A stretch of 63,998 nucleotides of DNA, the filler included, from Stramenopiles sp. TOSAG23-3 (taxonomy: Eukaryota): the NCBI GenBank assembly GCA_900128585.1. It is 17 parts of 17 records of this genome, joined end to end, with 100 filler letters (N's around TTAATTAATTAA, not from the genome) between each part and the next. Parts side by side here need not be neighbours in the genome. Positions count along the whole stretch, not along the records: positions 15,200 to 18,896 come from LT644116.1; 16 more parts are not named here. One strand, given 5' to 3'. Below are positions 4,622 to 60,318 of this stretch, in pieces. The translations under genes were made by a program, and so were the position numbers. The notes under the pieces are model-generated. The model was not told the DNA's origin. It did not search any database and saw nothing but the letters and a program-made list of their open reading frames with translations. Every line of letters starts with the position of its first letter. The stretch's first letter is position 1.

Positions 4622-7501
4622 TCAATGATTAAACAGAGATGGTGCATCATCAGATGAAGTTTGTTGCCTACTACTTGCATCGCTCCTTCCACTGCCGTTA
4701 CTCCCTGATTGGCTTATAGAATCGCTTTCTTCATCAGATATGTGACTTACACCAACGGAAGCTGAAATTTCGGACACGTCGTCGTCGTCTAAATGCCTTG
4801 TATTTAGTTGCGAAGTCAACGTCTCCTTCATGTCATTGTCGCTGCCAGAGGTAGAAGATTCTGCTTCGCTAGATGAAAATACTTCTGCATCAGAACTGCT
4901 TAAAATCGATGACGCGTCGGACGAGGATGGGCTAAGAGTAACCTTCTGCTCTTTTTCAACTGGCATTTCATGCTCTATCTTACTAGCTACTTTATCATTC
5001 CCAAGTATGACCGATGGATTTGGTTTCGGGGTGATCTTTGAAGCTCCTGCAGCGGTTCTACGAAGGTTTTTCGGTACTGCTGTGGCTGATCCCAATTGAT
5101 TTGCCTTTTCAACGAAGGTCTTTGGTTGCACAGAAGTACTAGTTTTTAAAACAGCAAGTTTTTTTGACTTCAAAAGTCTTGCGTTCATGCCTCTTATTTT
5201 TGCAGAATTAGATTTAACTCGGGCCCAAAGCATTTCTCTACGTGTTTTTCGTTTCACACTACTGCTTTTTATTTCATGCATTACACTAACGATAAAATAT
5301 AGAGATGTTAATCCAATTATTGCGATCGCGACACAAACTATGACCATACTGTGAGAAGAATAGTCACGCTCCAGTAAATATTTCGAATTAGTCATCACAG
5401 CGCATAAGCACAAGAACACTAAAGCGCCTAAAAGTACCGTCTCTATTGTGTTAAGATTAAACAAATCGTGTTTATGCTTGTTCATTATTTTTTCTTGTTC
5501 GTCAATTTCAACTCTCATACGGTGCATTAGTTCGTAGTAAGACTTTCCGTTGATTCGGACCAGGAGCTGGGCGCGTTCCAAACGCTTAATTTCCGATAAT
5601 ATGCGCTCCTCGGCTTCTTGCCGTATCACAACTGCTTTTTCCCTGACACCCATGTACGGCATATACCTAACTTGCAACACAAAATTTACGAAAACGATAC
5701 CCAATATAGAAGCAACTTGGAAAGTGACGTCATCGTTGAACATGAGAAATATAACACTGAGGGCAAATTTTCGTAAAATAACCGTTATAGACCATCGAAA
5801 ATACTTTGGTCGAAACATATAGTAGACCTTCCCAAAAGCCATACGAAGAAAATAAAATCTATTCGTTCTTACACTGTCACCTTTATCATGCGCTCTTAAT
5901 ACCTGGTCTGCGATAATCTTGTCTTTAAAGTAGTGAAATATGCAAAGCAGTAACAATGGGAACCCTCCACTATAACTGGCCAGAACCAGTAGCGCGTAAG
6001 GCGCCAAACGATTTTGAAGAGTTCCAGGGACATAGCATTCTTCTAAAGGTTGGGATGCCATATAATACCGCCCTGTTTTCGGGGCAGTGTCTTTACAATT
6101 AAAAATTTCTAGAGCCTGCGGAAGATTAGATCAGGTTGGGGGATTATGAGGTTAATTGTCTGTTTAGAATTTAAAGGATGTGTCAGTGTATAAATGCTGG
6201 TACTTACGGTTCGGCAAATTGTAAGGTATAAAAAGTAGATCATTGAAAAAGTCATTGAGATTACAACAGCTCCGAGAGGGACCACTTTTTTCACTTGCTT
6301 TCGTTTTTTTCGGGGTCTACGACGTTTCCTTTGAGACCACCAGCGTTGCAACTTATACAGTAGTCGACGAATGTATATAATAATGATGCAAAAAGTTACG
6401 AACGCCCCTCCTATTATTGGAAATGACACCTTAATCCACCACTTTCGCTCGTAAGTTACAAATTCTCTTAATGCACACTCCGGCCCAGTCATGTCAAGAT
6501 CCATTTGAAACCATTGCATCCAACCAATGACTAGTGCAAAGTCAAAAGGCAAAGTGACCCCTGGGGGCAAGGGAACAAAAAGCTTCACTATGATCGACAA
6601 TGTTTGGAAATAGTCTATTCCAACAGACAAAATGGACAGGTTGATGCCACTTCGGCTGAGAAAAAACATCCCAACTCCAACAAATAGACAAAGAAACACC
6701 ATGGCTGCTGGAAGTAACCATGGTATCGATGGACATGGAACACACTCGCCATCAAGGCGAAAATGTGGGGTTTCTTCAGATATGTCGCACATTCCGCAGC
6801 GAGGGGCATAGCAGAATCCACTTGGTAGAGTTATGTGCAAATAACTGCATTGCAGCAAACCATCTTCTCCTTCAATGTAAGGCTCATATGTGGATACGTA
6901 ACCTCTCGTGCAAGTGTTGTTGTACCCACATGCGACTGCGGGTTCGCAGGGCATGACATATGGGCAATATCGACGTCGAGTTGGGGATGCGTATGAAAGT
7001 TTCAATGTATTCACTGTCGTCGAAGAATTGAAGCGATCTGGATGACAAATTTCCCCTGGAACCAATGCTGCATCACAATCCGGCACACCTGAATTTCCAC
7101 TCTGAAATATTTGTCTGTCAGATAAACATTTGTCCGGTATGCGGTCCAGGCCAGTACCAGGATCCGGAGAGCACACACCAGTGCCTTTCGCTATTTGGCA
7201 TTCTACCGGTGGCAACAACGCAAATCCAGGTTTGGCCACCGGCTCTTCCGTCCCAAAACCCTCAATAAAAATTCCTGTACACTCGACGGCATAAATTTTT
7301 TTGTCTTCGTCTGACGCCAAAGTATCACTTCCTTTATCCGCGTTTAAAAAGTGCCAGCACTCTACACATCTTTCTGCAAGCTTTCCATAAAACCCATATG
7401 CGCATCTGGCAGATAGGAACTTGTAGAAAGTGGAATTTTGCATCGCCACATTAATTTTGATAATTTTCTCTCCTACTGTTGACAATCGGGGCCGGCAGGA
7501 T
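4622..7501 (-). CDS. Large multi-pass membrane protein with Cys-rich ectodomain; two exons (7501-6208, 6115-4622), 5'-truncated
   Basis: ORFs 6109..7485 and 4622..6061 join in frame (ICRT|ALEIFNCKD...YYMASQP) on removing the intron; many hydrophobic helices; Ser/Asp-rich tail. Confidence 0.85.
6116..6207 (-). other. Spliceosomal intron, 92 nt
   Basis: GTAAGT donor, CTAAT branch point, GCAG acceptor; removal restores the reading frame. Confidence 0.9.
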
Positions 7502-11401: not shown

Positions 11402-14191
11402 GTGGTCTGCTCGTACAAGGCCAGCTTTGAGGCGGCCAAATATTGCAAAGAGAAAGGATTAAGCGCGAACAGCTTGCAGTCGTGCCAAAACAAAGCGTGG
11501 GCGCATCTCACCAAGAACAACAAGACCGACCATGACGTTAAGAAGGAGTGCCACAAAATGCACTTGAACTCGACCGACGTCATCTGGCACTGCATTGCCG
11601 CGCGCACGATCGAGATCAAAGTCTGGTGCCAAGAACCGTTGGACGAGAACAACCAGCGCTGGGAAATCACCGACTACAAGTCGAACTCCGAAGATGACTC
11701 CAAGCCGACCTGGGATTCGAAGCAAGGGAAGCTCTCCGTGGAGCAGTGCAGGGACAAGGTGACCGAGACGACCGCGATTGCCGGGTGGCAGACTGGAGAG
11801 CTGGTGGGGCACCTGCAGGACGCCGGGGAAACGATCACGCAGTGGCTGGGCGATCTGCAGCAAACATTGGACGCCATTCTTGTCACGGGGCTCCTATTTA
11901 CGGTTATCCTAAGTTTGGTCTGGCTGTATTTCATGCGGGTGGCGCCGAAAGCGATCAGCTGGACGTTCATCGTCCTCGCCCTGCTGTCTATTTTCATCCT
12001 CATGCTCTTCTTCTTTGAAAAGGCGGGCCTCTTGGGCATGGAGGCGAAGCTGCTGGGCCTGAAAACGAAGTTGCAGAAGCAGACCTACATCTCTGTGGAC
12101 ATGATGCCAACGGCGGTGCCCGCCATTGCGGCAGAGGACAAGAGCAACCACGAGCTTTACAAGTGGGGGGGCATTGTGACGGCATGCATTTTCGGGATCG
12201 CCACTGTCGTGACGGTCTTGGTCCGGGACAAAATCAGCCTTGCCATCCAGGTGATGGCGGAGGCCAGCAAGGCCATCCGCGACCTTCCGCTGCTGATATT
12301 CTACCCCTTGTTCAACTTCGTTGCCATCATACTCTTGGTCCTGCACTGGATATTCGTTGGGGGCTTGATCATGACGAGCGGGGAGATCATCAACAGCGCG
12401 GGCGAAGACTTGGCGGAGAAGACCAGGCAAGGACTCGGAAAAGTGCCGGCGGGGGAGTACACGCCCAACTTCATCAAAGACGTCAACACGTCCAACTTGA
12501 ACTGGGAACCCTTCAAGGAGGACGACGGAAAGAAGTGGTCGATGGCGTTTCACACCGTGTGCATGATGTGGACGTACGGCACGCTGATCGCGCTCGGGTA
12601 TTACGTGATCGCCCGGGCGGTGAGTCAGTGGTACTTCAAGGAAGGAAAGTACATCGCCGCGGTGCGAAACCGGACCGTCAAGGTTGACGAGAGCAAGCTG
12701 TGCAACCTGGGCTGCTGCAAAGTGAATTGTGAGGAACAGAAGGAGACGCCGGTGGTGGACGCGTTCTTGTCGGCATGGAAGTACCACATGGGCTCCCTGC
12801 TTTTCGGGGGGTTCGTGACCACGCTGTGCAAGCTGCTGATCGTTTTCTTTGGCCTGCTGCACAAATTCTCCGAAAGGATTGAGGGGGTCGGGGCCGGCAA
12901 CAAGTTTCTGGACCTTGTGAAGAAGTGCGTTGCCACGTGCTTGTCCTGGTTCAACAAGTTTGTCAAGTTCATCTCCCGGAACGCGTACATTTACATTGCC
13001 ATGTACAGCGACCAGAGCTTTTGCCAGGCCTCTATGGAGAGCTTTAAGCTGATCAAGGAGAACATTGTTGAAATCTGGGTCGTGGACGCGATCAGCGACT
13101 TCATTATGTTTGTCGGCAAGCTCTTCATCGTGTTCTTCAACGGGTGGATTGCCTTCCTGTGGGTTGCGGGGCACGAGAACAAGCCCTCCTCGATCTTCCT
13201 TCCCGTCTTGATGACCTGTGTGCTCACCTACTTCATCGCCAGCGGGATCATGCAGGTGTACGAAATGACCATCGACACGATCATCTTGTGCTACCTCGAA
13301 GACAAGCTGAAAAACAAAGGGGGGCCGTACAACATGAGCCCGGCGTTGAAGAAGGCCATGCAGGTCGAGACGACCGATCCATTCAACATGAAGCCCAGCG
13401 AAAGCTTTTACTTTTCCAACGACGTGTCTCGAAACGGCCAGGTCAGCCTTGGCATTGGCTGGTCGTGCGAGCAGGTGGAAGTGGAGGGGGCGGCCAACAA
13501 GGTTGACGTTGACATCGACGCGAGCCTTTTGTGCTTCGACAAGGACGGCAACATCAAAGACTGGATCGGTTACTGGCGAGACCAGTCCTCCGGCCAGTTG
13601 AAACGAAAGCACAAGAGTGGCGGGCGCTTGTTTGAGTGGGTCGGCGGGGACAAGCGGGTAAGCCCCCTTAAGCCTGGTGATATTTCCCACAGCGGCGACA
13701 AGACCAAGGGCTCCCTGACCGAGAACGGGGAGAGCATTGACGAAGTGGTCACGGTGGACCTGGCCGCCCTGGACCGGGCGGATATCGATGTCGTGGCCTT
13801 CTGCATGTTTGTCTTCAAGGGCGGGGACTTCCAAACTGTGAACCACGTGTACATGCACGGCCAGGAGCACCAGAGGTTGGGCGCTGGGCTGGGCCAGCAA
13901 GTGTGCCGCTTCAGCTTCTCCCCCGTGGGCGAAGAGAAGAGAAAGAGCGGAATGCTGTTCGCCAAGTTGAGGAGAAACGTTGTCGGAGGGTCAGACGGCG
14001 TGGAACGCAAGGCGTTCTGGGAGCTGGAGGCCACGGGGCAATTTACCACCGGAAGGACCGTCACAACGGAGAACATGATTGACATTACCAAGTACTGCTT
14101 TCCCTCCGAGGAGAAGCGCAAGAGCCTGGGCCTGCTGCAGGGGGTAAAGAATGGTGTCGGGGCCGGCATTGCCGTGATGGCCATGCAGTAA
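11402..14191 (+). CDS. Choline transporter-like (CTL/SLC44) protein with a C-terminal TerD-like domain; 5'-truncated
   Basis: CTL motifs KYHMGSLLFGG, KFISRNAYIYIAMY..SFCQA, IDTIILCYLED; then TerD motifs LGIGW...DIDASLLCFD...HSGD...DEVVTVDL...AKLRR...WELEATG. Confidence 0.88.
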   Translation: MVCSYKASFEAAKYCKEKGLSANSLQSCQNKAWAHLTKNNKTDHDVKKECHKMHLNSTDVIWHCIAARTIEIKVWCQEPLDENNQRWEITDYKSNSEDDSKPTWDSKQGKLSVEQCRDKVTETTAIAGWQTGELVGHLQDAGETITQWLGDLQQTLDAILVTGLLFTVILSLVWLYFMRVAPKAISWTFIVLALLSIFILMLFFFEKAGLLGMEAKLLGLKTKLQKQTYISVDMMPTAVPAIAAEDKSNHELYKWGGIVTACIFGIATVVTVLVRDKISLAIQVMAEASKAIRDLPLLIFYPLFNFVAIILLVLHWIFVGGLIMTSGEIINSAGEDLAEKTRQGLGKVPAGEYTPNFIKDVNTSNLNWEPFKEDDGKKWSMAFHTVCMMWTYGTLIALGYYVIARAVSQWYFKEGKYIAAVRNRTVKVDESKLCNLGCCKVNCEEQKETPVVDAFLSAWKYHMGSLLFGGFVTTLCKLLIVFFGLLHKFSERIEGVGAGNKFLDLVKKCVATCLSWFNKFVKFISRNAYIYIAMYSDQSFCQASMESFKLIKENIVEIWVVDAISDFIMFVGKLFIVFFNGWIAFLWVAGHENKPSSIFLPVLMTCVLTYFIASGIMQVYEMTIDTIILCYLEDKLKNKGGPYNMSPALKKAMQVETTDPFNMKPSESFYFSNDVSRNGQVSLGIGWSCEQVEVEGAANKVDVDIDASLLCFDKDGNIKDWIGYWRDQSSGQLKRKHKSGGRLFEWVGGDKRVSPLKPGDISHSGDKTKGSLTENGESIDEVVTVDLAALDRADIDVVAFCMFVFKGGDFQTVNHVYMHGQEHQRLGAGLGQQVCRFSFSPVGEEKRKSGMLFAKLRRNVVGGSDGVERKAFWELEATGQFTTGRTVTTENMIDITKYCFPSEEKRKSLGLLQGVKNGVGAGIAVMAMQ

Positions 14192-15099: not shown

Positions 15100-15269
15100 N
15101 NNNNNNNNNNNNNNNNNNNNNNNNNNNNNNNNNNNNNNNNNNNTTAATTAATTAANNNNNNNNNNNNNNNNNNNNNNNNNNNNNNNNNNNNNNNNNNNNG
15201 ACTACTAACTACTAAAACAAGAAAAATTGGCCAGTCACCATCATGGGTTTGGAAACTGTCTCATCTTCA

Positions 15270-16419
15270 TCACTGTGAGTCAGTCTCCTCTTGTCTCCTC
15301 TTCTTCGCTTCTTCCTGTTGGTCAGACAATTCTTCCTTGCCTTTTTCTTTTATCTCTTTAGCTATTTGTTTTGCGTTTTTTTTCTTCTTCAGCGCTTTAA
15401 AGAACTGTTTACTTTTGTCGATAGCGCCTCCTTTTTTCTTAAGGTCTGGGCGTTTTTTACCCAACCACTTGAAAAATTTTGTGCCAAGTTTCCCAACCCC
15501 TTTCACACCTTTTGCTATGAGTCCAAGCGGCGTTAAGTTTAAGGCGACCGATGCAATAGCTAAAGCATGCTCTTCTTCTGAAAGTTTTTCTCCAGTTATC
15601 ATATCACGTCCTTCCCTTGCTTCGTATACTTCTCGAGCTAGAGAGACAATGGGCAAATTTCTCGTAACAGAATCATATTCTTCCGAGGCGATATACTTTG
15701 AGAAGTTTCCCCTCCAACCAACCAACATCCTCGAAATCGTATTGGACACTTATGAGAGCCATGTCATTATCTTCATTCTTGTTTCCGGCTTCTATTTTAA
15801 AGAAGTGGTCTTTTGGCCAGTTTGAGAAATCATCCGTGCTCGCAGCTCCGGTGTAAAGTACTGCTTTCAAGGACGACTCGATCACTCGAGAATCAGGGTC
15901 CAAACCTCCATCACATTGTTTAGCCTCGTCTAGCATTCTTTTGTGTAGTTCTTGATTTGTCCCTGTTTTTGCTTCCACACTTTGTTCGGCATTTTTTTTC
16001 AGAGCAGTAATTTGGGCATCCTCAGATGGTTTCTCCTGCTTATTTTGTACTTGAGTGGAACCTCCTTCTTCCTGGGAATCATCAGTGCCCTGGTTTTCAT
16101 TTTCGCAATCTTTGCCTTCACAATCGACCTGGATGAACGAGGTGGAGCTTTGCATATTGTTTGAGCGAAGCAGCCCTCTGGTATCAACAGCCACTTTTTT
16201 GCACGGGCACGAAGAACGTTTCTGAATTACATCTTCATCATTGCCAATATTCATCATATAATTGGGAATAGATAGAGCCCCTGTGTTTGCCAAGCCCCCC
16301 GTATCAGGGAAAAAATTGGCAGCGGATGACGCGGAGGCCCCAACCCTAGAGACAGCATGTGCTATAGAAATCAATTCATGGTTAAAAAGTAGAATCAAGA
16401 TAAAGAAAGCAACGTTCAT
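15270..16419 (-). CDS. Putative secreted protein with PT-TG (pre-toxin TG)-like domain and Lys-rich tail; split by a +1 frame break near 15680
   Basis: Signal-like MNVAFFILILLFNHELISIAHA from ATG 16419; overlapping ORF 15270..15749 contains LPIVSLAREVYEAREGRDMITGEKLSEEEHALA...TPLGLIAKGVKGVGK. Confidence 0.65.
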
Positions 16420-17386
16420 GATTGCTTTGTCGAACGTCAAATGTTGGATAGTGACTACTGTCTTGGAAAAAATGGATTTAGCACTAACTTTCCCATTTGC
16501 ATCGGCAAAGTTGCAAATCACATTCTCATTTAATCACATATTTACAATTGAAGACACCATTCTTCCATGAAAACAAAGAGACGTGTCTACTTACAAGTAA
16601 ACGACTAATAAAATATAATTCCAATGTAATAATAATATAAGAAAAGGTATTAAAAAAAGTAGTACAATATATAGAAGAACCCACCCTATACTAAAAACAA
16701 GAAAATTGGCTGTTATTTCAGTAATTAAATTTAGCTTCCTCATAGTAGAATATAATATTTTTAAAATATATATGATGCAACAGCAACAAAAATCAACACA
16801 AACAAACAACTATTGTCACATATGTAGACTAGACTCGTAGGGACTCTCCCCCCCCCTTTTTTTTTATGAAGTACGAGTAGAACACTTCAATACTTTTTTT
16901 TTGGTATAATATTCTCCCCCACTATAATGCTGTAATTGTGTTTTCTTTTTAGAATTGGATTATTCGGATTTTAGTTTTTTTTTTTTTGGATCTTTTTTTC
17001 TTCTTTTTTCTTTTTTATGAACTTTTTTTTAATTAAAAAACTAGTTTGAAGAAGGATGATGATTCTGAAAATGATTGTAAATTGGATGATATTATTATCG
17101 AATCACATACATACTACATACATCATACGGAGGATAGGCCTTATTATACTTCTTCGTCAAATTACATACAGAAAGTGCCAAGAATCCTTCTTTAATAGAA
17201 CCACCCCTTTTACTTTCTATTATCTGTACCGCGAAAAGTTTCGTTAGAACCAGAATGTAAATTGTGCAATATTCGCGTAGCTTTTAACATATGCCAGTAA
17301 AACGTTCCCACATAAAAAATTAATCACAAAAAGCCGGTACGTATCCATCGAGTCACTCTGCCTGCGTCCTCAATAATAGCTCGAAG

Positions 17387-18359
17387 ATGCGCGCCTACCT
17401 CGCCCTGGTCTCGAGGGCTGTGAGGTCACCGAGGCCGCCGCCGCGCGCTCCCGTCGCTGAATGGAGGGCGGGATTTCGACGTCGATCGCTCTGCGCTGCC
17501 GCGGGCGACGCAGGTGTTGATGGGCAGGACGTGAAGGCGCTCCAGGAACTCGTGGAGGAGAGAATAATACAACTGTATGTGGACCATGACAGACTCGGTT
17601 GGGCGGGCATTCCTGCACCCAATGAATGCAGGGAGGCGCTGGAGCAGTTCGCCGGGGACATGGAGGCGGCGAGCGAGTGGCTGGGTGAGAAGGCGCGCAA
17701 GCGCGCCATAAGCGAGCATGATAAAGAGAGAAAGAAAAGGGCGAAACTGTATTGGGAACAGCCAGAGAAAAAAAAGGGCAGAAAGGAGGAAAAGAATGGC
17801 AGCGCAGTTGAATGAAAAGCTAAAGCATACAAGGAACGAACTCTTCAAGTTGCATGAGCCGCCGCGGTGCGGGCTGCAGAAGCAGCTTGTGGGGAATTGG
17901 TATTCAGACCGTAAATACAATCCCTATTCACGCGACTATCCACGACAATGGTTGAAGTTTAAAGTGAGTACGGGTGGCATTGGATCCCTCGCGGCCGTCA
18001 ATGTTGTTTTCCCTGGGAATGACCAAGAATATTTTAGGACGCGCGGATTACCTCACGTGGGTGGACGGGTGCCTTTGGAAGACCAAACTTTCGCTCTACC
18101 CCCCTCCGGGTGGGACCCTACAGTACATACACGGGTAGTCACAGGGTCACTCAAACAAGCAGCGACGGACCGGATCGAAGTGACGTTTTACGGCGACCAC
18201 CCATATTTGGACTCGCACAGCACGTTCCATAAGGCTTCTGCGACCGAGTGCGAGGAGGAGAGAGAGAGGAGAGAGAGGATCTTAATCTGCGAACTAGACG
18301 ACCTAGAGAGAGAGGAGAGAGATGACGTAGACCCCAGACCCATAGACCCAGATCCCTAA
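17387..18359 (+). CDS. UBA-like domain protein with a C-terminal beta-sandwich-like region; frameshift in the A8 run at ~17768-17775
   Basis: ECREALEQFAGDMEAASEWL is UBA-like; ORFs 17387..17815 and 17718..18359 join by removing one A; Arg/Ala-rich N-terminus resembles a transit peptide. Confidence 0.6.
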
Positions 18360-18751
18360 TTGTGAAATGTATTTAAAATGAGAGTCTTAAAACATACTAT
18401 ATATTTTATTTTTTTTTTATGTTCAAAATATGCAAAGTCTCAGAGAATGCATACGACTGGCTTGAACTTTCACAAGAAGCAGCGTAAATTGTAAATGTTA
18501 AAAGATATTAGATAATGAATTTATTATATAAGAAGGCTTAGAGTATCGTGTAAAGATTTAATTTATTATTTAAAAAAAAAAATAGAAGAAAAAGGGGATC
18601 AAATATCATATGTTACACTAACAAATTCTTAAATTTAAACATATTATACCATGTCCATTAATCGGTCATAGCCTTTTCTTCTTCTTTCCCGTTTCAATCC
18701 CTAACATTTCGGACATGGAGACTTCCATCTCACTCATTGCCTCGCCCATGG

Positions 18752-18895
18752 GGTCCGTATTTGATGGTTTTTGACGGGAAACACCTTTCCGAGGGCCCTG
18801 TGTGCACGATTGACGTGAAAGCGCAGCTACCCTACGGGTTTCACGGGAGCTGGTGCATCGACGGCGCGTCCTCGTCGCCCGCTGCCAAACTGTAA
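18752..18895 (+). CDS. Orphan C-terminal fragment of a carotenoid cleavage dioxygenase (RPE65 family), ending in PTS1-like AKL
   Basis: My translation (not in the ORF track): GPYLMVFDGKHLSEGPVCTIDVKAQLPYGFHGSWCIDGASSSPAAKL*; PYGFHG.W is the family's last iron-ligand His motif. Confidence 0.8.
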   Translation, partial: GPYLMVFDGKHLSEGPVCTIDVKAQLPYGFHGSWCIDGASSSPAAKL

Positions 18896-20181
18896 ANNNN
18901 NNNNNNNNNNNNNNNNNNNNNNNNNNNNNNNNNNNNNNNNTTAATTAATTAANNNNNNNNNNNNNNNNNNNNNNNNNNNNNNNNNNNNNNNNNNNNGCAA
19001 GATTTTCTATTCTCTTTACTCTCGGGGACAAAAAACTTGTGAACGTTCACAGTTGATACTCCCTGGGTCACACGGTCTGCAGATTTGCCAATGTCATACG
19101 CTAGAAAGTACTGCCCGTGCGTGCGGCGCTCTTCCCAAAATGACATGCACTACGAGGCGGCCGAGGACATCTTCACTGTGCTGTGGTGTTTCCTTAATAG
19201 GGTGGTTTCAAAAAAGTAATCAACTCCCGTTGAGTCTGTGGGTTCTGCTTCTGGCCCACGCTACTAAAAACGTAAGAATTCTTGTCCTAATTCTACGCAC
19301 GGGATGAAGCCAACTCTTGACCGTCAATTTTACACCTCGGGCGGTGGAGGAGGGGGCAACGCACCCATTGAAAGGCGCGGTGGTGGAGGTGGCGGCCTGG
19401 AACGAGCGATTGAAGCGGTACAAGTATGGCCAAATGCCCAGCTGAAACATGTGTGTCCGAGGCTCCAACGCCCAAGAGTCCACAACAAGATATTATTATT
19501 CGAAGCGAGAAACGAGAAGTAACACAGAACAGCATTACACCAGTAGTTGTTCACTCAGGTCTTCCTTCACCCGTCGATTAGTTCCTGGAAATAGCCCTGT
19601 GTGGAACACGAACGATAGAATTAGATCGTCATTGCCAACCCTATTTATAACATTTACAATGGGATGAAAATTCGATTCACTCCAAAGCTTGATTTTTGAG
19701 ACATTTTTCATATAGATGCTATGAACCTTTTATATAATAAACATCCTATCATTAATTTTCATATTGTACCCATAATCATACTTTATATACTAATACAACT
19801 ACGTTAATAATACGTCGTAGAAGTACATACTTTGTATCATAACCGTGTCCGAACAATTACCACCATCCATCATCATCATCAAATATATAATAAATACTCT
19901 AAGATTACTAACTCACGACTACTATTGGAATGAACAACAACAGGCAGCAATTAAAAAAAACAAGCAAGAGAGAAGAAGAAGAATGGCACTGGTGTTTTGT
20001 GTATACAATACAGATCGAAATCGTTTGGTTCAATAATGAATGACCAGGGGAATAATTTTGTATTATGTAGAAGATTGCTTGCCCATTTCTAAGTATCCAG
20101 AAAAAGAGTATTGCCACGAAAAAACAAATCAGAACAGTGCACAGTGTTTGTTTGCGTACCGTCGGTTAGTTTCTTCGCAGC

Positions 20182-32275: not shown

Positions 32276-33487
32276 TTACTGGTGGTAGTGCTTCACAATC
32301 CGCCACGCCTCTTGCAGCTCCTTCGCCCCGTCGCTCTTGATGTTGGACACGGCTAGGCCAATGTGGCTACACAAAAGCCGCAACAGGCGCTCGTCGTCTG
32401 CGGTAAAATGGCCCGTCTCGGTCTTCTTGTTCACGACCTCGACCACCCCGGTGACGGTCCCGTCGCTCCCAAAGATGGGCATGGCCAGGACGCTCTTGGT
32501 GGTAAACCCAGTCTGCGCGTCAATGTCGGGGTAAAACCTATCGTCTTTCGAAACGTCCGGGACATTGACGATCTGCTTCGTCATTGCGCACGCACCCACC
32601 AGGCCTTTGTTGGCCGGCACGTATATCTTTGCGTTGTCCTCGGTCATGTTTGGGTTCACCACGGCGTACGAATATATCCGGTCGGTCGCGTCGTCCAACA
32701 GAAACAGGGTCGCCGACTCCGCGTTCAGCATCGTCCCTACCTCCTGGAACACGTTGTGGAACAACATTTCCAAGTGCAACTTTTGCTTCTTCACTTCAGT
32801 CCCACCACTGTCCATGAACAGGAGGGGAAACATTCCGATCAGGCACCCAAGGGCCACCCCGACTGCGCTCCCGTAGTTGTCAGCCCGCTTCGTCCATTTG
32901 TGCTTCATTTGGCCCCGGGTCAATACGGGGGCGCTGAACCCTAGCCGAGCCGATAGTTTTTCCACCGAACTTCCCGCCCAGACCCCGGCAACGTCCGAGA
33001 CGAGGTTCCCGAGCCCGGCCGCTGCCATGGTCGATATCCCGAGGGTAACTCCCATCGTCATGTCAATGTAGTCCCCCGCTATTATCATAATCGCATTGTC
33101 TATAATCCCAAACCCGACGAATGGGATGGAAGACGCCAAGAAGACGCCCTGGAGCTGGGCAAAGGTCGGCGCGCCCGAGTTCGCGGCGCTCTCCAGCTCC
33201 TGGTACATCCGTTCGACGCGCGTAACCGCCGCACCAAGTTCCCCCACACTCACAATTGATTTCGTTTCCTGCACCAACATGGCCGCTATTTTAGGATCTT
33301 CGTCCAACATTTTCTGTATCGAAAGGAACGTCCCCTTGTTCGCACCGCCGGACGACGACATCGGCCGACGCAGTGCCGAACGCTGGCCGTAGCGTGTGCG
33401 GGCCAGCGAAGCCGAACCCAACCTTGGGAACCCTTGAAGGCCTCGGCGTACAAAACTCTTGCAAACACGCTTCACGGCGAAAGACAT
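32276..33487 (-). CDS. TMEM65-family mitochondrial membrane protein fused to a C-terminal GAF domain
   Basis: Arg/Ser-rich presequence; IPFVGFGIIDNAIMIIAGDYID...STMAAAGLGNLVSD...GCLIGMFPL; GAF motifs GLVG...NVPDVSKDDRFYPDIDAQTGFTTKSVLAMPI...VVNK...FTADDE. Confidence 0.92.
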   Translation of the reverse strand: MSFAVKRVCKSFVRRGLQGFPRLGSASLARTRYGQRSALRRPMSSSGGANKGTFLSIQKMLDEDPKIAAMLVQETKSIVSVGELGAAVTRVERMYQELESAANSGAPTFAQLQGVFLASSIPFVGFGIIDNAIMIIAGDYIDMTMGVTLGISTMAAAGLGNLVSDVAGVWAGSSVEKLSARLGFSAPVLTRGQMKHKWTKRADNYGSAVGVALGCLIGMFPLLFMDSGGTEVKKQKLHLEMLFHNVFQEVGTMLNAESATLFLLDDATDRIYSYAVVNPNMTEDNAKIYVPANKGLVGACAMTKQIVNVPDVSKDDRFYPDIDAQTGFTTKSVLAMPIFGSDGTVTGVVEVVNKKTETGHFTADDERLLRLLCSHIGLAVSNIKSDGAKELQEAWRIVKHYHQ

Positions 33488-34290
33488 TGTTGTGATATAT
33501 ACCAGACCAAGACGATTGCACAGTATTTGTGTCAAACGATCAGAGTGGTATTTATATCTGTCATTCATGATGGTTTTGATATTCATCCTTTGGTTTCATT
33601 TGTTTTTATATAGTACAATTCATTCAGTTATTCTCTCTATATATATAGGTTCGTTCATTCAATCGACCTCTCTTTTTTTTCTTTTTTTTCTTCTTTTTTC
33701 TTTCTTTCTCTTTTTTCTCTTTCTTTCTTCTTTCTTCTTTCTCTTTCTTTCTCTTCTTCTTCTTCGCCCAACAACAAAATAATAATAATAATATTAAATA
33801 TTATAATAAATAACACCCCACAAACACAAACAACATAGACACAACAACAAAAATAAAAACAAAAAAAAGAAGAAGAAATAATAATCTATTATTATTATTA
33901 TATCCTCCACGGTAACATGTGCTGTGTAGGTGTTAAAAATATAACAAAAACTATATATAGTTGTTTAATACTATGGGGACCTGGATGTTATGTTTGTGAT
34001 GTTTGTGATGTTTGTGATGTTTCTGATAAACTACAATTTACAATATANNNNNNNNNNNNNNNNNNNNNNNNNNNNNNNNNNNNNNNNNNNNTTAATTAAT
34101 TAANNNNNNNNNNNNNNNNNNNNNNNNNNNNNNNNNNNNNNNNNNNNGCAGTCCGTTATCATTTCACAGAAAGAAAAGTTTCTTCACAAGGGAAACGCAG
34201 AACTTTCGCAGAATACCGTTTACCTACAGTGTTTTAGAAACTTTCGCAGAACGCCGTTCCAGTTTTATAGAAGCTTTCGCGTTGCTGTTT

Positions 34291-46488: not shown

Positions 46489-46845
46489 GCCCTGGGCACC
46501 CTCTCAGTAAACGGATCTAGACCAAATTAGGAGTCTTAGAAGAGGCATAAGTGTGCGTTGAGAAAATAGTATTCTTAGGACCAAGAGTTGCCCATCGCTG
46601 AAAATCTTTTAGAAGAGAGGCCAATTTTCTTGTTTAATTGTATTAGGTTTTTTTCTTCTTTTAACAAATTTTAAATAGCAGCCATTTTCTTTAGTTTTAA
46701 TAAATCCCTTGACTGATTTACAAGGCAGACAATATGGTTTAAGTGTTGATGGTTTAAATTTTTAAAGTGTGCGCTAAGAACTTAAGTTCATCCATATTCT
46801 TAAGATTACTAATTGCCAACTGTGTGGTACCTCTTAATTGTAACA

Positions 46846-56723: not shown

Positions 56724-57097
56724 NNNNNNNNNNNNNNNNNNNNNNNNNNNNNNNNNNNNNNNNNNNNTTAATTAATTAANNNNNNNNNNNNNNNNNNNNN
56801 NNNNNNNNNNNNNNNNNNNNNNNTGAGGAGAGGAAAACACAACAGAATTCGCTACTCTATTTTTGGTAATACACAAGCCTTGAAGAGAAGAAGCTCTGTT
56901 TTTTCTGTTATTATTTTATATCGCGAAAGATTAACCGAAGAACTTAATCACCAAACAAAAAATATTGCCTAGGTTGTTCTCAGGCGGCGAATTGGAAACT
57001 GGTCTGGTCGTCCAGTCTCGCAGCGTTAAACCGCAATAAGTAAGAGCGGGCTGGAGTCGTTATTTTTGACAGGCTTACCTCCTCTGATATCTGGAAG

Positions 57098-60000
57098 ATG
57101 TCCCTGACTAGGCCAAAAATGAGACGGGAAGGGACTGGCGTCAATAGTTTTTTGCAGGGTATGTCTTCGAGTGAACCGAAGAATTCTGCCATCGCTCAAA
57201 AGAGGGCGGAATTTGAAGCCCAGAGAAAAGAGCGGGCGGATGCAAGGGAACTGGAAAGGGAAGGTCATGAAGAAGCCCGGCGGGCCACTACTGAAGCCAA
57301 CGAAAAACTTGGTGAGGCAGGGACATATCGTGAGTGGACAATTGTGTACGACCCTCAAAGTCACGCAAATTATTACTACAACAATTTTAGCGGGGCCTGC
57401 GTGTGGGAAGAACCAGACGATTTTAAAGTTAGTACGAAGACCGGAAGACCAATAGCAGCGATAAAACTTTGGGCGGCTCGCCGCATGCAAGCAGTGTTTA
57501 GAGGCCGACGAGGACGCTTTAACGCACTAATGAAGCGTGCAGAGGAAGTTTATGAAGACGAACAAACACACACACACGGTGACTGGGTAGAGGCCTACGA
57601 TCCGCACCACCATGCAAAATATTATTACAATCACAGTACTCACGATGTCTCTTGGGAACCACCGGAAGGCTGGGTCGCGACTGAGTTTAATACTATTGAC
57701 GTGGATAAACACGCTGCCCAGCAAAGGTATAATGGGGCGGCCCCCGTCAGAATGTGGAGGCCACGAGCAGCCACAAAAATCCAATCGGTTTATCGTGGCC
57801 ATTTGGCCCGAAGACACGTCCATGCAATACGCGAAAACAAGCGGTTGCAGCATATTAGAAAACCAAAAATGACCGAAGAGGTCCCAAAAGACCAAGATTT
57901 TAGTGGGGCCGGTGAGTATGCCAGAGAAGAAATGCGGCGATTGGGGGATTTGCTTCATGAGAATAACCAGAGGGTGAAAAAAATGGAGGAAAACATATCT
58001 AATCATTCTCATGTCGTTGAAGTAAAAGACGCAAAAATAAACCAGCTGAAGAAGCGTATGGCAATGGACCAGGAAGAAATGCAAAGCCTTGAAAAGCGTC
58101 TTGAGCAGGAAGAGCACGACTTCGAAGAGCTTGTAAAGCTTACCAAGGCTAAAGAAAAAGAGATAGAAGAGAAGAACGAAGAGCTAAAGCGACAACTAGA
58201 ACAAATTACAGGGCACGAAAAAGAATTAGATCGCCACAAGACTATTATTAGACGCCAAGAAAAGGAGTTGGATGCATTAAACCCCGACACCGAGGAAGTT
58301 TGCTTGAGTGCCCGCAGTTTCAGCGAGAACATGGTGATTTCCCTGCGGGACGAGGCTATCGAAGCCAAAGAGAAGCAAATCGCCATCTTGAATGGCCAGA
58401 ATGAGAAATTGTTAGCAAATCTAGACAGTTTAGAGAGTGAAATACATAACATGCAAAAAGATTTGCTTTCAAAGGAAAAGGTCATTCAAAAGAAGACGCG
58501 ATATGGCGAGCATTTAGAGCACAAGATTGACAAACTAGAAAGGGATTTGCAGAAAAAAGGGGGCGAAGAGGCAGCGATTGAAGTGACGAACAGGCAGAAT
58601 CAAAAACAGAGGAGCTTGAGTCTATTAAAATCGATTTGAAAGGGCAAATCCAAAGCGTTGCAGAGCGTCACACTGCTCTGATGCACCAAGCTGCAGAATG
58701 GGAGGCAAAAAACTTACGCCTAGAAGCAGAGAACAGCGATTTGACAAAAAAATTGTCCACAGGGGCAATCACTTGGGAAGGGCAACGAGCTCAAATGGAA
58801 GCAGAAGTGTCGGAAACGAAAAGTATGGCACGTGTGCGTATAGACGCAATGCAAGAAGAACTTCGCACGCGACGGGAAAAACAATACAGCCTTTTGGAGA
58901 GGCTGCAAGCAGCAGAAGAGAGCATGCGGGCATCGGAAGACGAGTGTGAACGGCTTCGCGAAACTGTCAACGTTGTTCAGGAACGTTTGTACGAGTTGGA
59001 TGCTCAATTAATTCAAGCAAAACAGTGGAGGACAGAAGATAAGAGTTCTCAACACGATCTGGAAAAACATCTTAAGCAGCAACTTCGAAACCGAGATGCA
59101 GAAATCAAGAGACAAATAGAGGCAAGCGGCGGAGTTAAACGACAACTGCAGGAGATGGCAGCGACTGTCCTGCAGTTGGTGGAGAAAAACAAAGAAGCGG
59201 ATCAGCGCATGCAGGAAGAGGGCAAAAAAGTCGGGAGTACACAAGCACGGCTGGAAACGCTACAGACAAGAATTTCAGGGCTCATCAAAGAAGGGACTAA
59301 AGAAGGGAAAATGCGCGTTCAAGCAGAAACAACAATCAAAGTGTTGCATGAACAAATGTCAGAGTTACGACGAGGAAATAGACTTTTGACGGATACTGCG
59401 AAAAACAACATTTCTTCGTGGGAGGAGAAAGAAACGAACCTAAAGCGCCGCCTTGCGGCAATCAATGCTCGTCTTCACGGAGAGCAACGGGCTCGGCGCA
59501 GCGCCGTTGTCCGGATCATCGACCGGCGTATTACTACCAGGGCAGAATTAGACGAACGCGAACAGCGCGATCCTTCTGCGGGAACAACGGTAGATTTATC
59601 TAATCTTGGGCTAACAGACGATGAAGTTAGTATGATCTCACCGTTATTTGGGAAGGAGAGTTTATTAGCTCGTCGTTTCGAAACTTTGAATCTCTCATAC
59701 AATCGTTTGGGAGATAAGGGCGCGAATGCATTAGCTAGTTTAATTCGGAGTGGTACATTTCTAGAAACCATTAACGTGAGCGGCAACACCATTTCTGGTG
59801 AGGGTATACGTGCTCTAGCCGAGGGTTTGAGCGGCAGTGGGACACTAGGGATAAAGCATGTCTACGTGCATAAAGATGGGAAAGTGCAAGGACTTGGAGT
59901 TCGAAATCAAGCATGGGTCACCAAGTCTCCCAACTCTATTACGTCAGCAGATGTGCTGGATTCACCTAGAACTGCAGAGACAGTATTGACCGTCGATATG

Positions 60001-60318
60001 CGCAATAACGTTGCCCCAGAGTCAGCCCAGTTGAGCGAATACGAGATGTTGCCGCGAAAGAAACTCCCAGGAATAAAGAGGAAGACTAAAGAAGAGATAA
60101 TTGTAGAGGAAAAGAAAATGAAAGACGATAAATTTTTGGAGCGAGTATATGGGGGGGAGTCGAACCTCAAAGCTGGAGAAAAAGAGCACAATTCTAGTTC
60201 CTTCGGAAACGCCTCGAAAGAGACCTCGAAAAAGAAGAAACCTGGTAAAGTGAAAAGCAGAAGTAAAAAGTCTGAAGGATGGATCTCAAAGCACAATCCT
60301 CTAAAACGCCACAGGTGA
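57098..60318 (+). CDS. WW-IQ-WW-IQ, long coiled-coil, LRR protein; single frame break near 58600
   Basis: W..YD....YYYN..S....W..P twice; MQAVFRG and IQSVYRG IQ motifs; RI-like LRRs LNLSYNRLGDKG; second frame reads ESKTEELESIKIDLKGQ across the break. Confidence 0.85.

Follow-up and report, generated by a model that had tools for sequence, protein, structure and literature searches.

An intact and polymorphic gene with a bacterial PT-TG pre-toxin domain in the marine protist Stramenopiles sp. TOSAG23-3

The genome of the uncultured marine protist Stramenopiles sp. TOSAG23-3 contains a real, intact and polymorphic gene that is linked to host DNA and carries a bacterial pre-toxin domain, PT-TG, in a eukaryote. 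The window, by which we mean the whole stretch of 63,998 nucleotides that was analyzed, is a concatenation of contigs of ~3.7 kb joined by linkers of the form N44-TTAATTAATTAA-N44, and the genomic context of the gene is only the contig C4439 (G000:C4439) at 15200-18896, which belongs to an assembly of 28.4 Mb in 7088 contigs. The gene product is a member of the PT-TG family and lies outside polymorphic toxin systems as these are defined, because it has no toxin domain and an immunity gene was not seen beside it; it may nonetheless work like such a system. The features of the locus are as follows.

16692-16744, plus strand: long copy of the host's dispersed repeat element, lying upstream of the PT-TG gene and tying it to host DNA
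15270..16419, minus strand: whole PT-TG gene, one frame of 388 aa when 17 dropped bases are counted, with no need for an intron
16354..16419, minus strand: predicted signal peptide, residues 1-22, with a hydrophobic core and A-x-A before the likely cut, as read from the sequence
15688..16353, minus strand: acidic orphan N-terminal region, residues 23-244, with a net charge of -13 and no family
15687..15688, no strand: assembly error with 17 bases missing, as seen in X1 and X4 contigs; source of the apparent frame break
15495..15668 (about), minus strand: PT-TG domain (PF14449), 43.8 bits, E 2.5e-11
15513..15569, minus strand: helix of marginal hydrophobicity belonging to the PT-TG module, its central residues including Asn, Thr and Pro
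15456..15521, minus strand: cationic amphipathic helix (Gly/Lys), moment 0.64-0.66, +5 per 18 residues, identical in both copies
15273..15452, minus strand: variable tail, Lys-rich and then acidic, without a globular toxin domain, differing from the C5918 copy at 16 of 45 aligned residues
15207-15231, plus strand: stub of the dispersed element just behind the stop of the PT-TG gene, where the contig ends

In the assembly the gene is interrupted by a frame break, which the preliminary description of this DNA had noted between two ORFs, with the advice that reads at ~15680 be checked for a frameshift. We compared the locus with four of 22 listed sequencing runs, namely two DNA runs (X1 and X4), an oligo-dT run (X9) and a metatranscriptome (X16); X1 may be the source run of the assembly and so is not independent, and X4 is a metagenome from another study. 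The whole stretch of the gene is contained in a single X1 contig at a depth of 112 with 17 more bases behind position 15687, and a 581-nt contig from X4 crosses 15687 with the same 17 extra bases and is otherwise identical. The reads thus show dropped bases and one continuous frame, and the break is an assembly error. With the missing bases restored, the 1150 + 17 = 1167 nt correspond to 388 codons and a stop, the added bases introducing no stop as judged by inspection, and there is therefore one gene and not two ORFs. A second copy of PT-TG is present on the 671-nt contig C5918, which starts exactly at the position matching 15687, as would be expected if contigs had been wrongly joined at that point. 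An intron was considered and rejected, as there are 28 GT-AG candidates shorter than 300 nt but the reads show missing bases and no joints; slippage at a TTGG repeat near 15715-15726 was likewise rejected, with none seen in the reads. The peptides quoted in the preliminary description are present on the minus strand. The X9 and X16 RNA runs yielded a total of five clean pieces of the gene, for which DNA carry-over is possible; the X16 pieces of 253 and 211 nt have zero differences from the gene, and neither X9 nor X16 contains an RNA contig across 15687, although we give no weight to missing RNA coverage at this junction or over the upstream flank.

A Pfam scan of other contigs in the window identified the eukaryotic products CFAP74, Prp19, poly(A)-binding protein and kinesin. 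The dispersed element reported earlier on the PT-TG contig at 16698-16735 is real and abundant, with its copy number and shared core confirmed and matches in all 40 of the contigs scored (among 620 candidates), although its span is about 16692-16744 (53 nt). The X1 contig continues 41 nt past 16680, unbroken from the gene into the element, and the PT-TG gene is therefore physically joined to host repeat DNA; the suggestion that the element speaks against bacterial contamination thus holds. The two gene parts have GC3 values of 0.42 and 0.37, which are low but still inside the span of 0.37-0.83 given by 23 other host ORFs. The contig C4439 ends 70 nt past the stop of the PT-TG gene and contains no immunity-like neighbor, and the upstream neighbor is divergent and unrelated. 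The long element copy sits between the two divergent gene starts, and further copies or stubs are present in the window at 146-161 and 46620-46635. The divergent neighbor itself (17387-18359) begins with a mitochondrial-leader-like sequence, shows weak similarity of the UBA/EF-Ts-N-like kind (E 2e-4), and is composed of two overlapping frames of 142 aa and 215 aa, possibly reflecting another assembly frameshift or an intron.

The signal-like N-terminus proposed earlier starts at the ATG at 16419, as read from the sequence and its hydropathy, and the predicted signal peptide has a best 19-mer hydropathy of 1.85. The acidic region that follows it is a candidate pro-region or ectodomain. No Pfam family matches the N-terminal 248 aa at E values up to 10, so there is no LXG, WXG or RHS repeat; residues 130-244 have no Atlas match, and the structure model of the N-terminal part is of low confidence (pLDDT 38). 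A weak match of residues 133-232 to an HNH-type bacterial tip (14.8 bits) was rejected, as 30 block shuffles scored up to 13.2 bits and Pfam gave nothing. We also note an L-R-S ... S-F-I-Q stretch after the leader, at residues 84-99 (16123-16170), which resembles a motif of secreted protist proteins; a similar motif is present in only two of 23 other ORFs of the window, neither of which looks secreted.

The earlier assignment of a PT-TG domain is well borne out by the Pfam check, with the match of 43.8 bits (E 2.5e-11) exceeding the PF14449 gathering cut-off of 23.5 bits, and the domain of the C5918 copy is also above it at 42.3 bits. The top match in an Atlas search is a PT-TG cluster with a score of 0.92, which is weak by Atlas's own criteria. 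PT-TG has a 15-residue loop for which conserved Gly, Asp, TG and Arg residues are described (PMC13483458), and the Gly, Asp and TG are present in the protist protein, whereas the Arg that follows the TG motif (E-R) in bacterial relatives, including four aligned bacterial rows, is His in both protist copies. The hydrophobic helix has a 19-mer hydropathy of 1.63, or 1.36 in the second copy. The Lys-rich stretch has a charge of +18 and +20 over 52-54 residues in the two copies, and the moment of its farther part is low (0.15-0.54). Searches of the tail for a C-terminal toxin domain gave no Pfam, NCBIfam, PDB-sequence or fold match, and the C-terminal model, which is all helix (pLDDT 60), resembles nothing in the PDB at E<=0.001. 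Each copy contains five peptide-antibiotic-like windows, whereas none of 12,145 windows from 23 host ORFs and none of 38 flanks of bacterial PT-TG domains qualifies, these flanks being loci only and the thresholds having been chosen after the query was seen.

Searches with the query P0002 recovered only the ENA protein P0004 among 418 candidates, P0001 ('longer') gave no homologues from 2623 candidates, and P0003 gave none from 128. A library of 1.84 billion proteins contributed five matches, four of them PT-TG proteins (two below the Pfam cut-off) and the fifth P0005, which was discarded as a homologue because its score is a spurious sum over Ig repeats. No homologue was recovered from 503 and 66 pattern hits in JGI metagenome scans or from 96 in a viral scan, and none of the protein-library, metagenome and other homologue searches revealed a eukaryotic homologue. 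A scan of GTDB contigs identified six PT-TG loci, in Bacillota and Bdellovibrio, and among the two phyla sampled the 86-residue PT-TG segment matches 25 of 401 Bdellovibrio-phylum genomes and 4 of 401 Bacillota genomes (E<=0.01), with the best bacterial genome match at 38.8 bits and 36% identity. By a crude rule, a signal-like start is present in 16 of 21 5'-closed Bdellovibrionota frames versus 0 of 10 Bacillota frames, suggesting that the protist architecture resembles the Sec type. The closest architecture is therefore that of the Sec-type PT-TG proteins of Bdellovibrionota, and not that of the LXG/WXG100/Rhs toxins that had been cited for PT-TG in the preliminary description. A PT-TG tree (40 rows and 77 columns) places the protist copies without support.

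PT-TG proteins of bacterial polymorphic toxin systems (in particular the 'PT-TG singleton' group) and the protist protein have in common a G-x-D-x-x-TG-E-x-L-S core above the cut-off, hydrophobic and basic amphipathic helices, an N-terminal export signal and a variable C-terminus. The protist gene differs in being eukaryotic, in lacking both a folded toxin domain and any trafficking domain of the LXG, WXG, Rhs or VgrG type, and in that no adjacent immunity gene is seen. The Bdellovibrionota Sec-signal PT-TG proteins at loci L019 and L025 are like the protist protein in having a signal peptide, an unannotated region of 250-350 residues and PT-TG, and L025 together with P0007 and P0009, which are of the same sequence type, shares an L-T-P-x-x-x-I/L-x-K-G-V-K/R-G stretch with it. 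Unlike the protist protein, those of the Bdellovibrionota have 146-334 residues of globular composition after TG; the N-terminal regions are without similarity, and the tree gives no supported grouping. Among the Bdellovibrionota loci L019-L051 a signal peptide, PT-TG and a variable C-terminal region are a common combination, and L019 (L019:2149-3956) has a C-terminal extension and a small gene that overlaps the stop, in the manner of an immunity gene in a toxin-immunity pair.

The regions flanking bacterial PT-TG domains served as controls (n=38, with three more loci dropped as too short or unanchored). These too have a basic amphipathic helix behind the hydrophobic helix, with a median moment of 0.52 and a charge of +4, and the protist helix is near the top of the bacterial range, its moment being reached by two and its charge by one of the 38 controls. 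The Lys-rich helix that had been put forward as a payload is unusually peptide-antibiotic-like, but it is not a new payload, as PT-TG bacteria have a basic helix too. There are 108 and 147 residues after TG in the protist copies versus 146-362 in the controls, and the hydrophobic fraction of the tail is 0.21-0.22 versus 0.26-0.44, below all 38. This comparison suggests that the enzyme tip is absent and that the helix is the intensified part of a borrowed module. The earlier proposal of horizontal acquisition is retained in the form that a true PT-TG domain resides in a host-linked gene of secreted type and is most simply bacterial in origin.

Between the two assembled copies, PT-TG and the helix show 5 differences over 234 nt and the tail that follows shows 23 over 135 nt (P=4e-7), with the amphipathic helix invariant and the next 45 codons variable. 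The frame is open in both copies despite 17% divergence of the tail, and the only internal indel is a whole codon. The residue is changed in 19 of the 20 differing codons, pN/pS (0.086/0.039) is not significantly greater than 1 (P=0.11; tail alone P=0.42), and the data are at odds with strong purifying selection at a ratio of 0.3 or below (P<=3e-5). Record 13 of X9 has ten differences, and the six listed ones, in five codons of the N-terminal part, all change residues; pooling with this record gives P=0.044 against neutrality, which is post hoc and marginal. As a control for allele divergence, four of 20 small host contigs were searched for a second copy; none was found, and the control thus yielded no baseline for pN/pS. 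The contig C5918 probably comes from another cell, because X1 contains the window type only. Record 12 of X9 is a mosaic, being of the window type for 157 nt and then of the C5918 type for 25 loose letters, and record 7 of X4 has yet another 3' continuation. The tails found comprise two homologous types, a mosaic of these and an additional 3' end, which are related alleles and not unrelated cassettes, and the tail appears to be mosaic among natural variants. In C5918 (L002:381-600) there is also a tandem duplication of ~170 nt of the 3' end of the gene, by which the acidic tail becomes longer and a degenerate second copy remains beyond the stop. The protein P0004 no longer follows the sequence from about residue 160, ends at 205 aa, and may be a broken allele.

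We favor, tentatively and at somewhat less than an even chance, the interpretation that the gene encodes a secretory precursor built on a horizontally acquired PT-TG membrane-entry module and masked by a pro-peptide, which acts as a membrane-active effector against bacteria. The signal peptide would direct the product to the ER and the secretory route, and the acidic N-terminal region (-13) may mask the cationic part, with its charge of +18 to +20 over ~53 residues, up to the moment when the protein would be cut near PT-TG; PMC13483458 proposes such a release as the function of PT-TG. The freed hydrophobic and amphipathic cationic helices would then bind to and insert into anionic bacterial membranes, either in the food vacuole or following release on contact, and the variable tail may tune binding or evade target resistance. 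A membrane-active effector is suggested by the one intact frame in two DNA studies with PT-TG above the cut-off in both copies, by the RNA pieces in X9 and X16 (with possible DNA carry-over), by the combination of signal peptide and PT-TG shared, under the crude rule, with 16 of 21 Bdellovibrionota and 0 of 10 Bacillota, and by a helix at the top of the bacterial range together with variation concentrated in the tail, the changed residue in 19 of 20 differing codons, the rejection of strong purifying selection and the mosaic record of X9. Against it, no eukaryotic homologue was found and there is thus no support from conservation across species, the pN/pS values fit neutral drift, P0004 may be a broken allele, basic amphipathic helices are general after bacterial PT-TG, a membrane anchor would likewise account for a hydrophobic helix with lysines behind it, 15687 is not crossed by any RNA contig, and the thresholds for peptide-likeness were set with the query already seen. 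A bolder version of the membrane-active effector, plausible but doubtful, is that a phagotrophic protist acquired a PT-TG toxin gene of the Sec type from a bacterial predator and dropped the enzyme tip, with the delivery hairpin becoming a membrane-active weapon and the tail being shuffled among alleles to give a eukaryotic polymorphic effector; if so, PT-TG and the two following helices would constitute a membrane-insertion unit.

It is on the unlikely side, although by no means far-fetched, that the gene is a young horizontally acquired relic, namely a bacterial Sec-type PT-TG gene minus its toxin domain that is open, weakly transcribed and drifting with little or no function. A relic would fit with the lack of a relative in any other eukaryote searched, a pN/pS compatible with 1, the shortened variant P0004, the tandemly duplicated 3' end in C5918, and a tail that is shorter (108 and 147 versus 146-362 residues) and less hydrophobic than in the 38 bacterial controls. 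It fits poorly with two copies that are both open despite 17% tail divergence with a whole codon as the sole internal indel, with an amphipathic helix that is invariant when the next 45 codons are not, and with GC3 values inside the host range, and the distance from any bacterial PT-TG (38.8 bits, 36% identity) points to long residence or to an unsampled donor. We consider it decidedly unlikely that the product is a type I membrane protein of the surface or vacuole, with a variable acidic ectodomain, the PT-TG helix as anchor and a basic cytosolic tail, that functions in recognition or virus evasion and not as a toxin. The 19-mer hydropathy of 1.63 with lysines directly following, in accord with the positive-inside rule, and the six listed N-terminal differences of X9 record 13 (5 codons), all changing residues, are what such a protein would have, but Asn, Thr and Pro are central in the helix, hydropathy is only 1.36 in the second copy, the insertion scores are unfavorable (+3.6 and +4.5 on an approximate scale), and the strongest variation lies in the would-be cytosolic part.

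A secreted effector against other eukaryotic microbes (kin, prey or competitors), with PT-TG carrying the Lys-rich tail into the target cell to bind nucleic acid or ribosomes there, is improbable. The tail does occupy the toxin slot and is the strongly basic and polymorphic part, as toxin tips are in the polymorphic systems described in PMC3417536, but it matches no catalytic or binding family, and there is no immunity-like neighbor on a contig that ends 70 nt past the stop. Bacterial contamination or a chance similarity to PT-TG is scarcely credible. Every true homologue match is bacterial in type and the contig is short, but gene and host repeat are continuous in the X1 contig, the stop is followed by a stub of that repeat, there is no operon or immunity gene, pieces are present in the oligo-dT library, and the PT-TG score is 20 bits over the curated cut-off.

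The precursors of magainin, dermaseptin and piscidin, which have acidic pro-pieces, are like the protist protein in combining a signal peptide, an acidic region and a Gly/Lys-rich amphipathic helix with allelic variation. There is no homology to these cationic antimicrobial peptide precursors, however, and the protist helix derives from a bacterial toxin module. If the product is antibacterial, it would provide a concrete and allele-diversified killing factor for an uncultured marine protist, the prey-killing tools of which are, to our knowledge, poorly known.

Eukaryotic captures of polymorphic-toxin parts include the teneurins (RHS and an HNH-like tip), Hedgehog HINT, SuFu and EndoU (PMC3417536), which are like the protist gene in the lateral uptake of a polymorphic-toxin component by a eukaryote; as presented there, these are ancient, widespread and involve other domains, whereas the protist case concerns PT-TG and a single species. 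For PT-TG itself, receptor interaction or binding was proposed in PMC3113570, where the domain was defined, and a cleavage substrate or site in the 2026 survey PMC13483458, which calls it uncharacterised. A eukaryotic protein with PT-TG and two helices minus the toxin domain is a natural minimal construct for telling membrane insertion from cleavage. The 2026 survey covers bacterial genomes only and has many PT-TG proteins without a known toxin, and its main text never mentions Bdellovibrio; the account in PMC3482391, as far as it goes, lists toxin domains and not PT-TG in stramenopiles. Our literature searches revealed no report of a eukaryotic PT-TG, although supplements of the papers may list eukaryotic members.

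Other parts of the window have features of their own. Paired long overlapping ORFs on the same strand at 4622-7501 and 57044-60318 are perhaps assembly frameshifts like that at 15687. At 11405-14191 a choline-transporter-like protein carries a TerD domain as a fusion at its C-terminus (Pfam E 1.9e-71 and 5.2e-8), and at 32276-33595 a TMEM65 domain is fused with a GAF domain (Pfam scan). The start of the contig at 34265-34609 contains four copies of a 45-60 nt repeat with a spacing of 63-80 nt.
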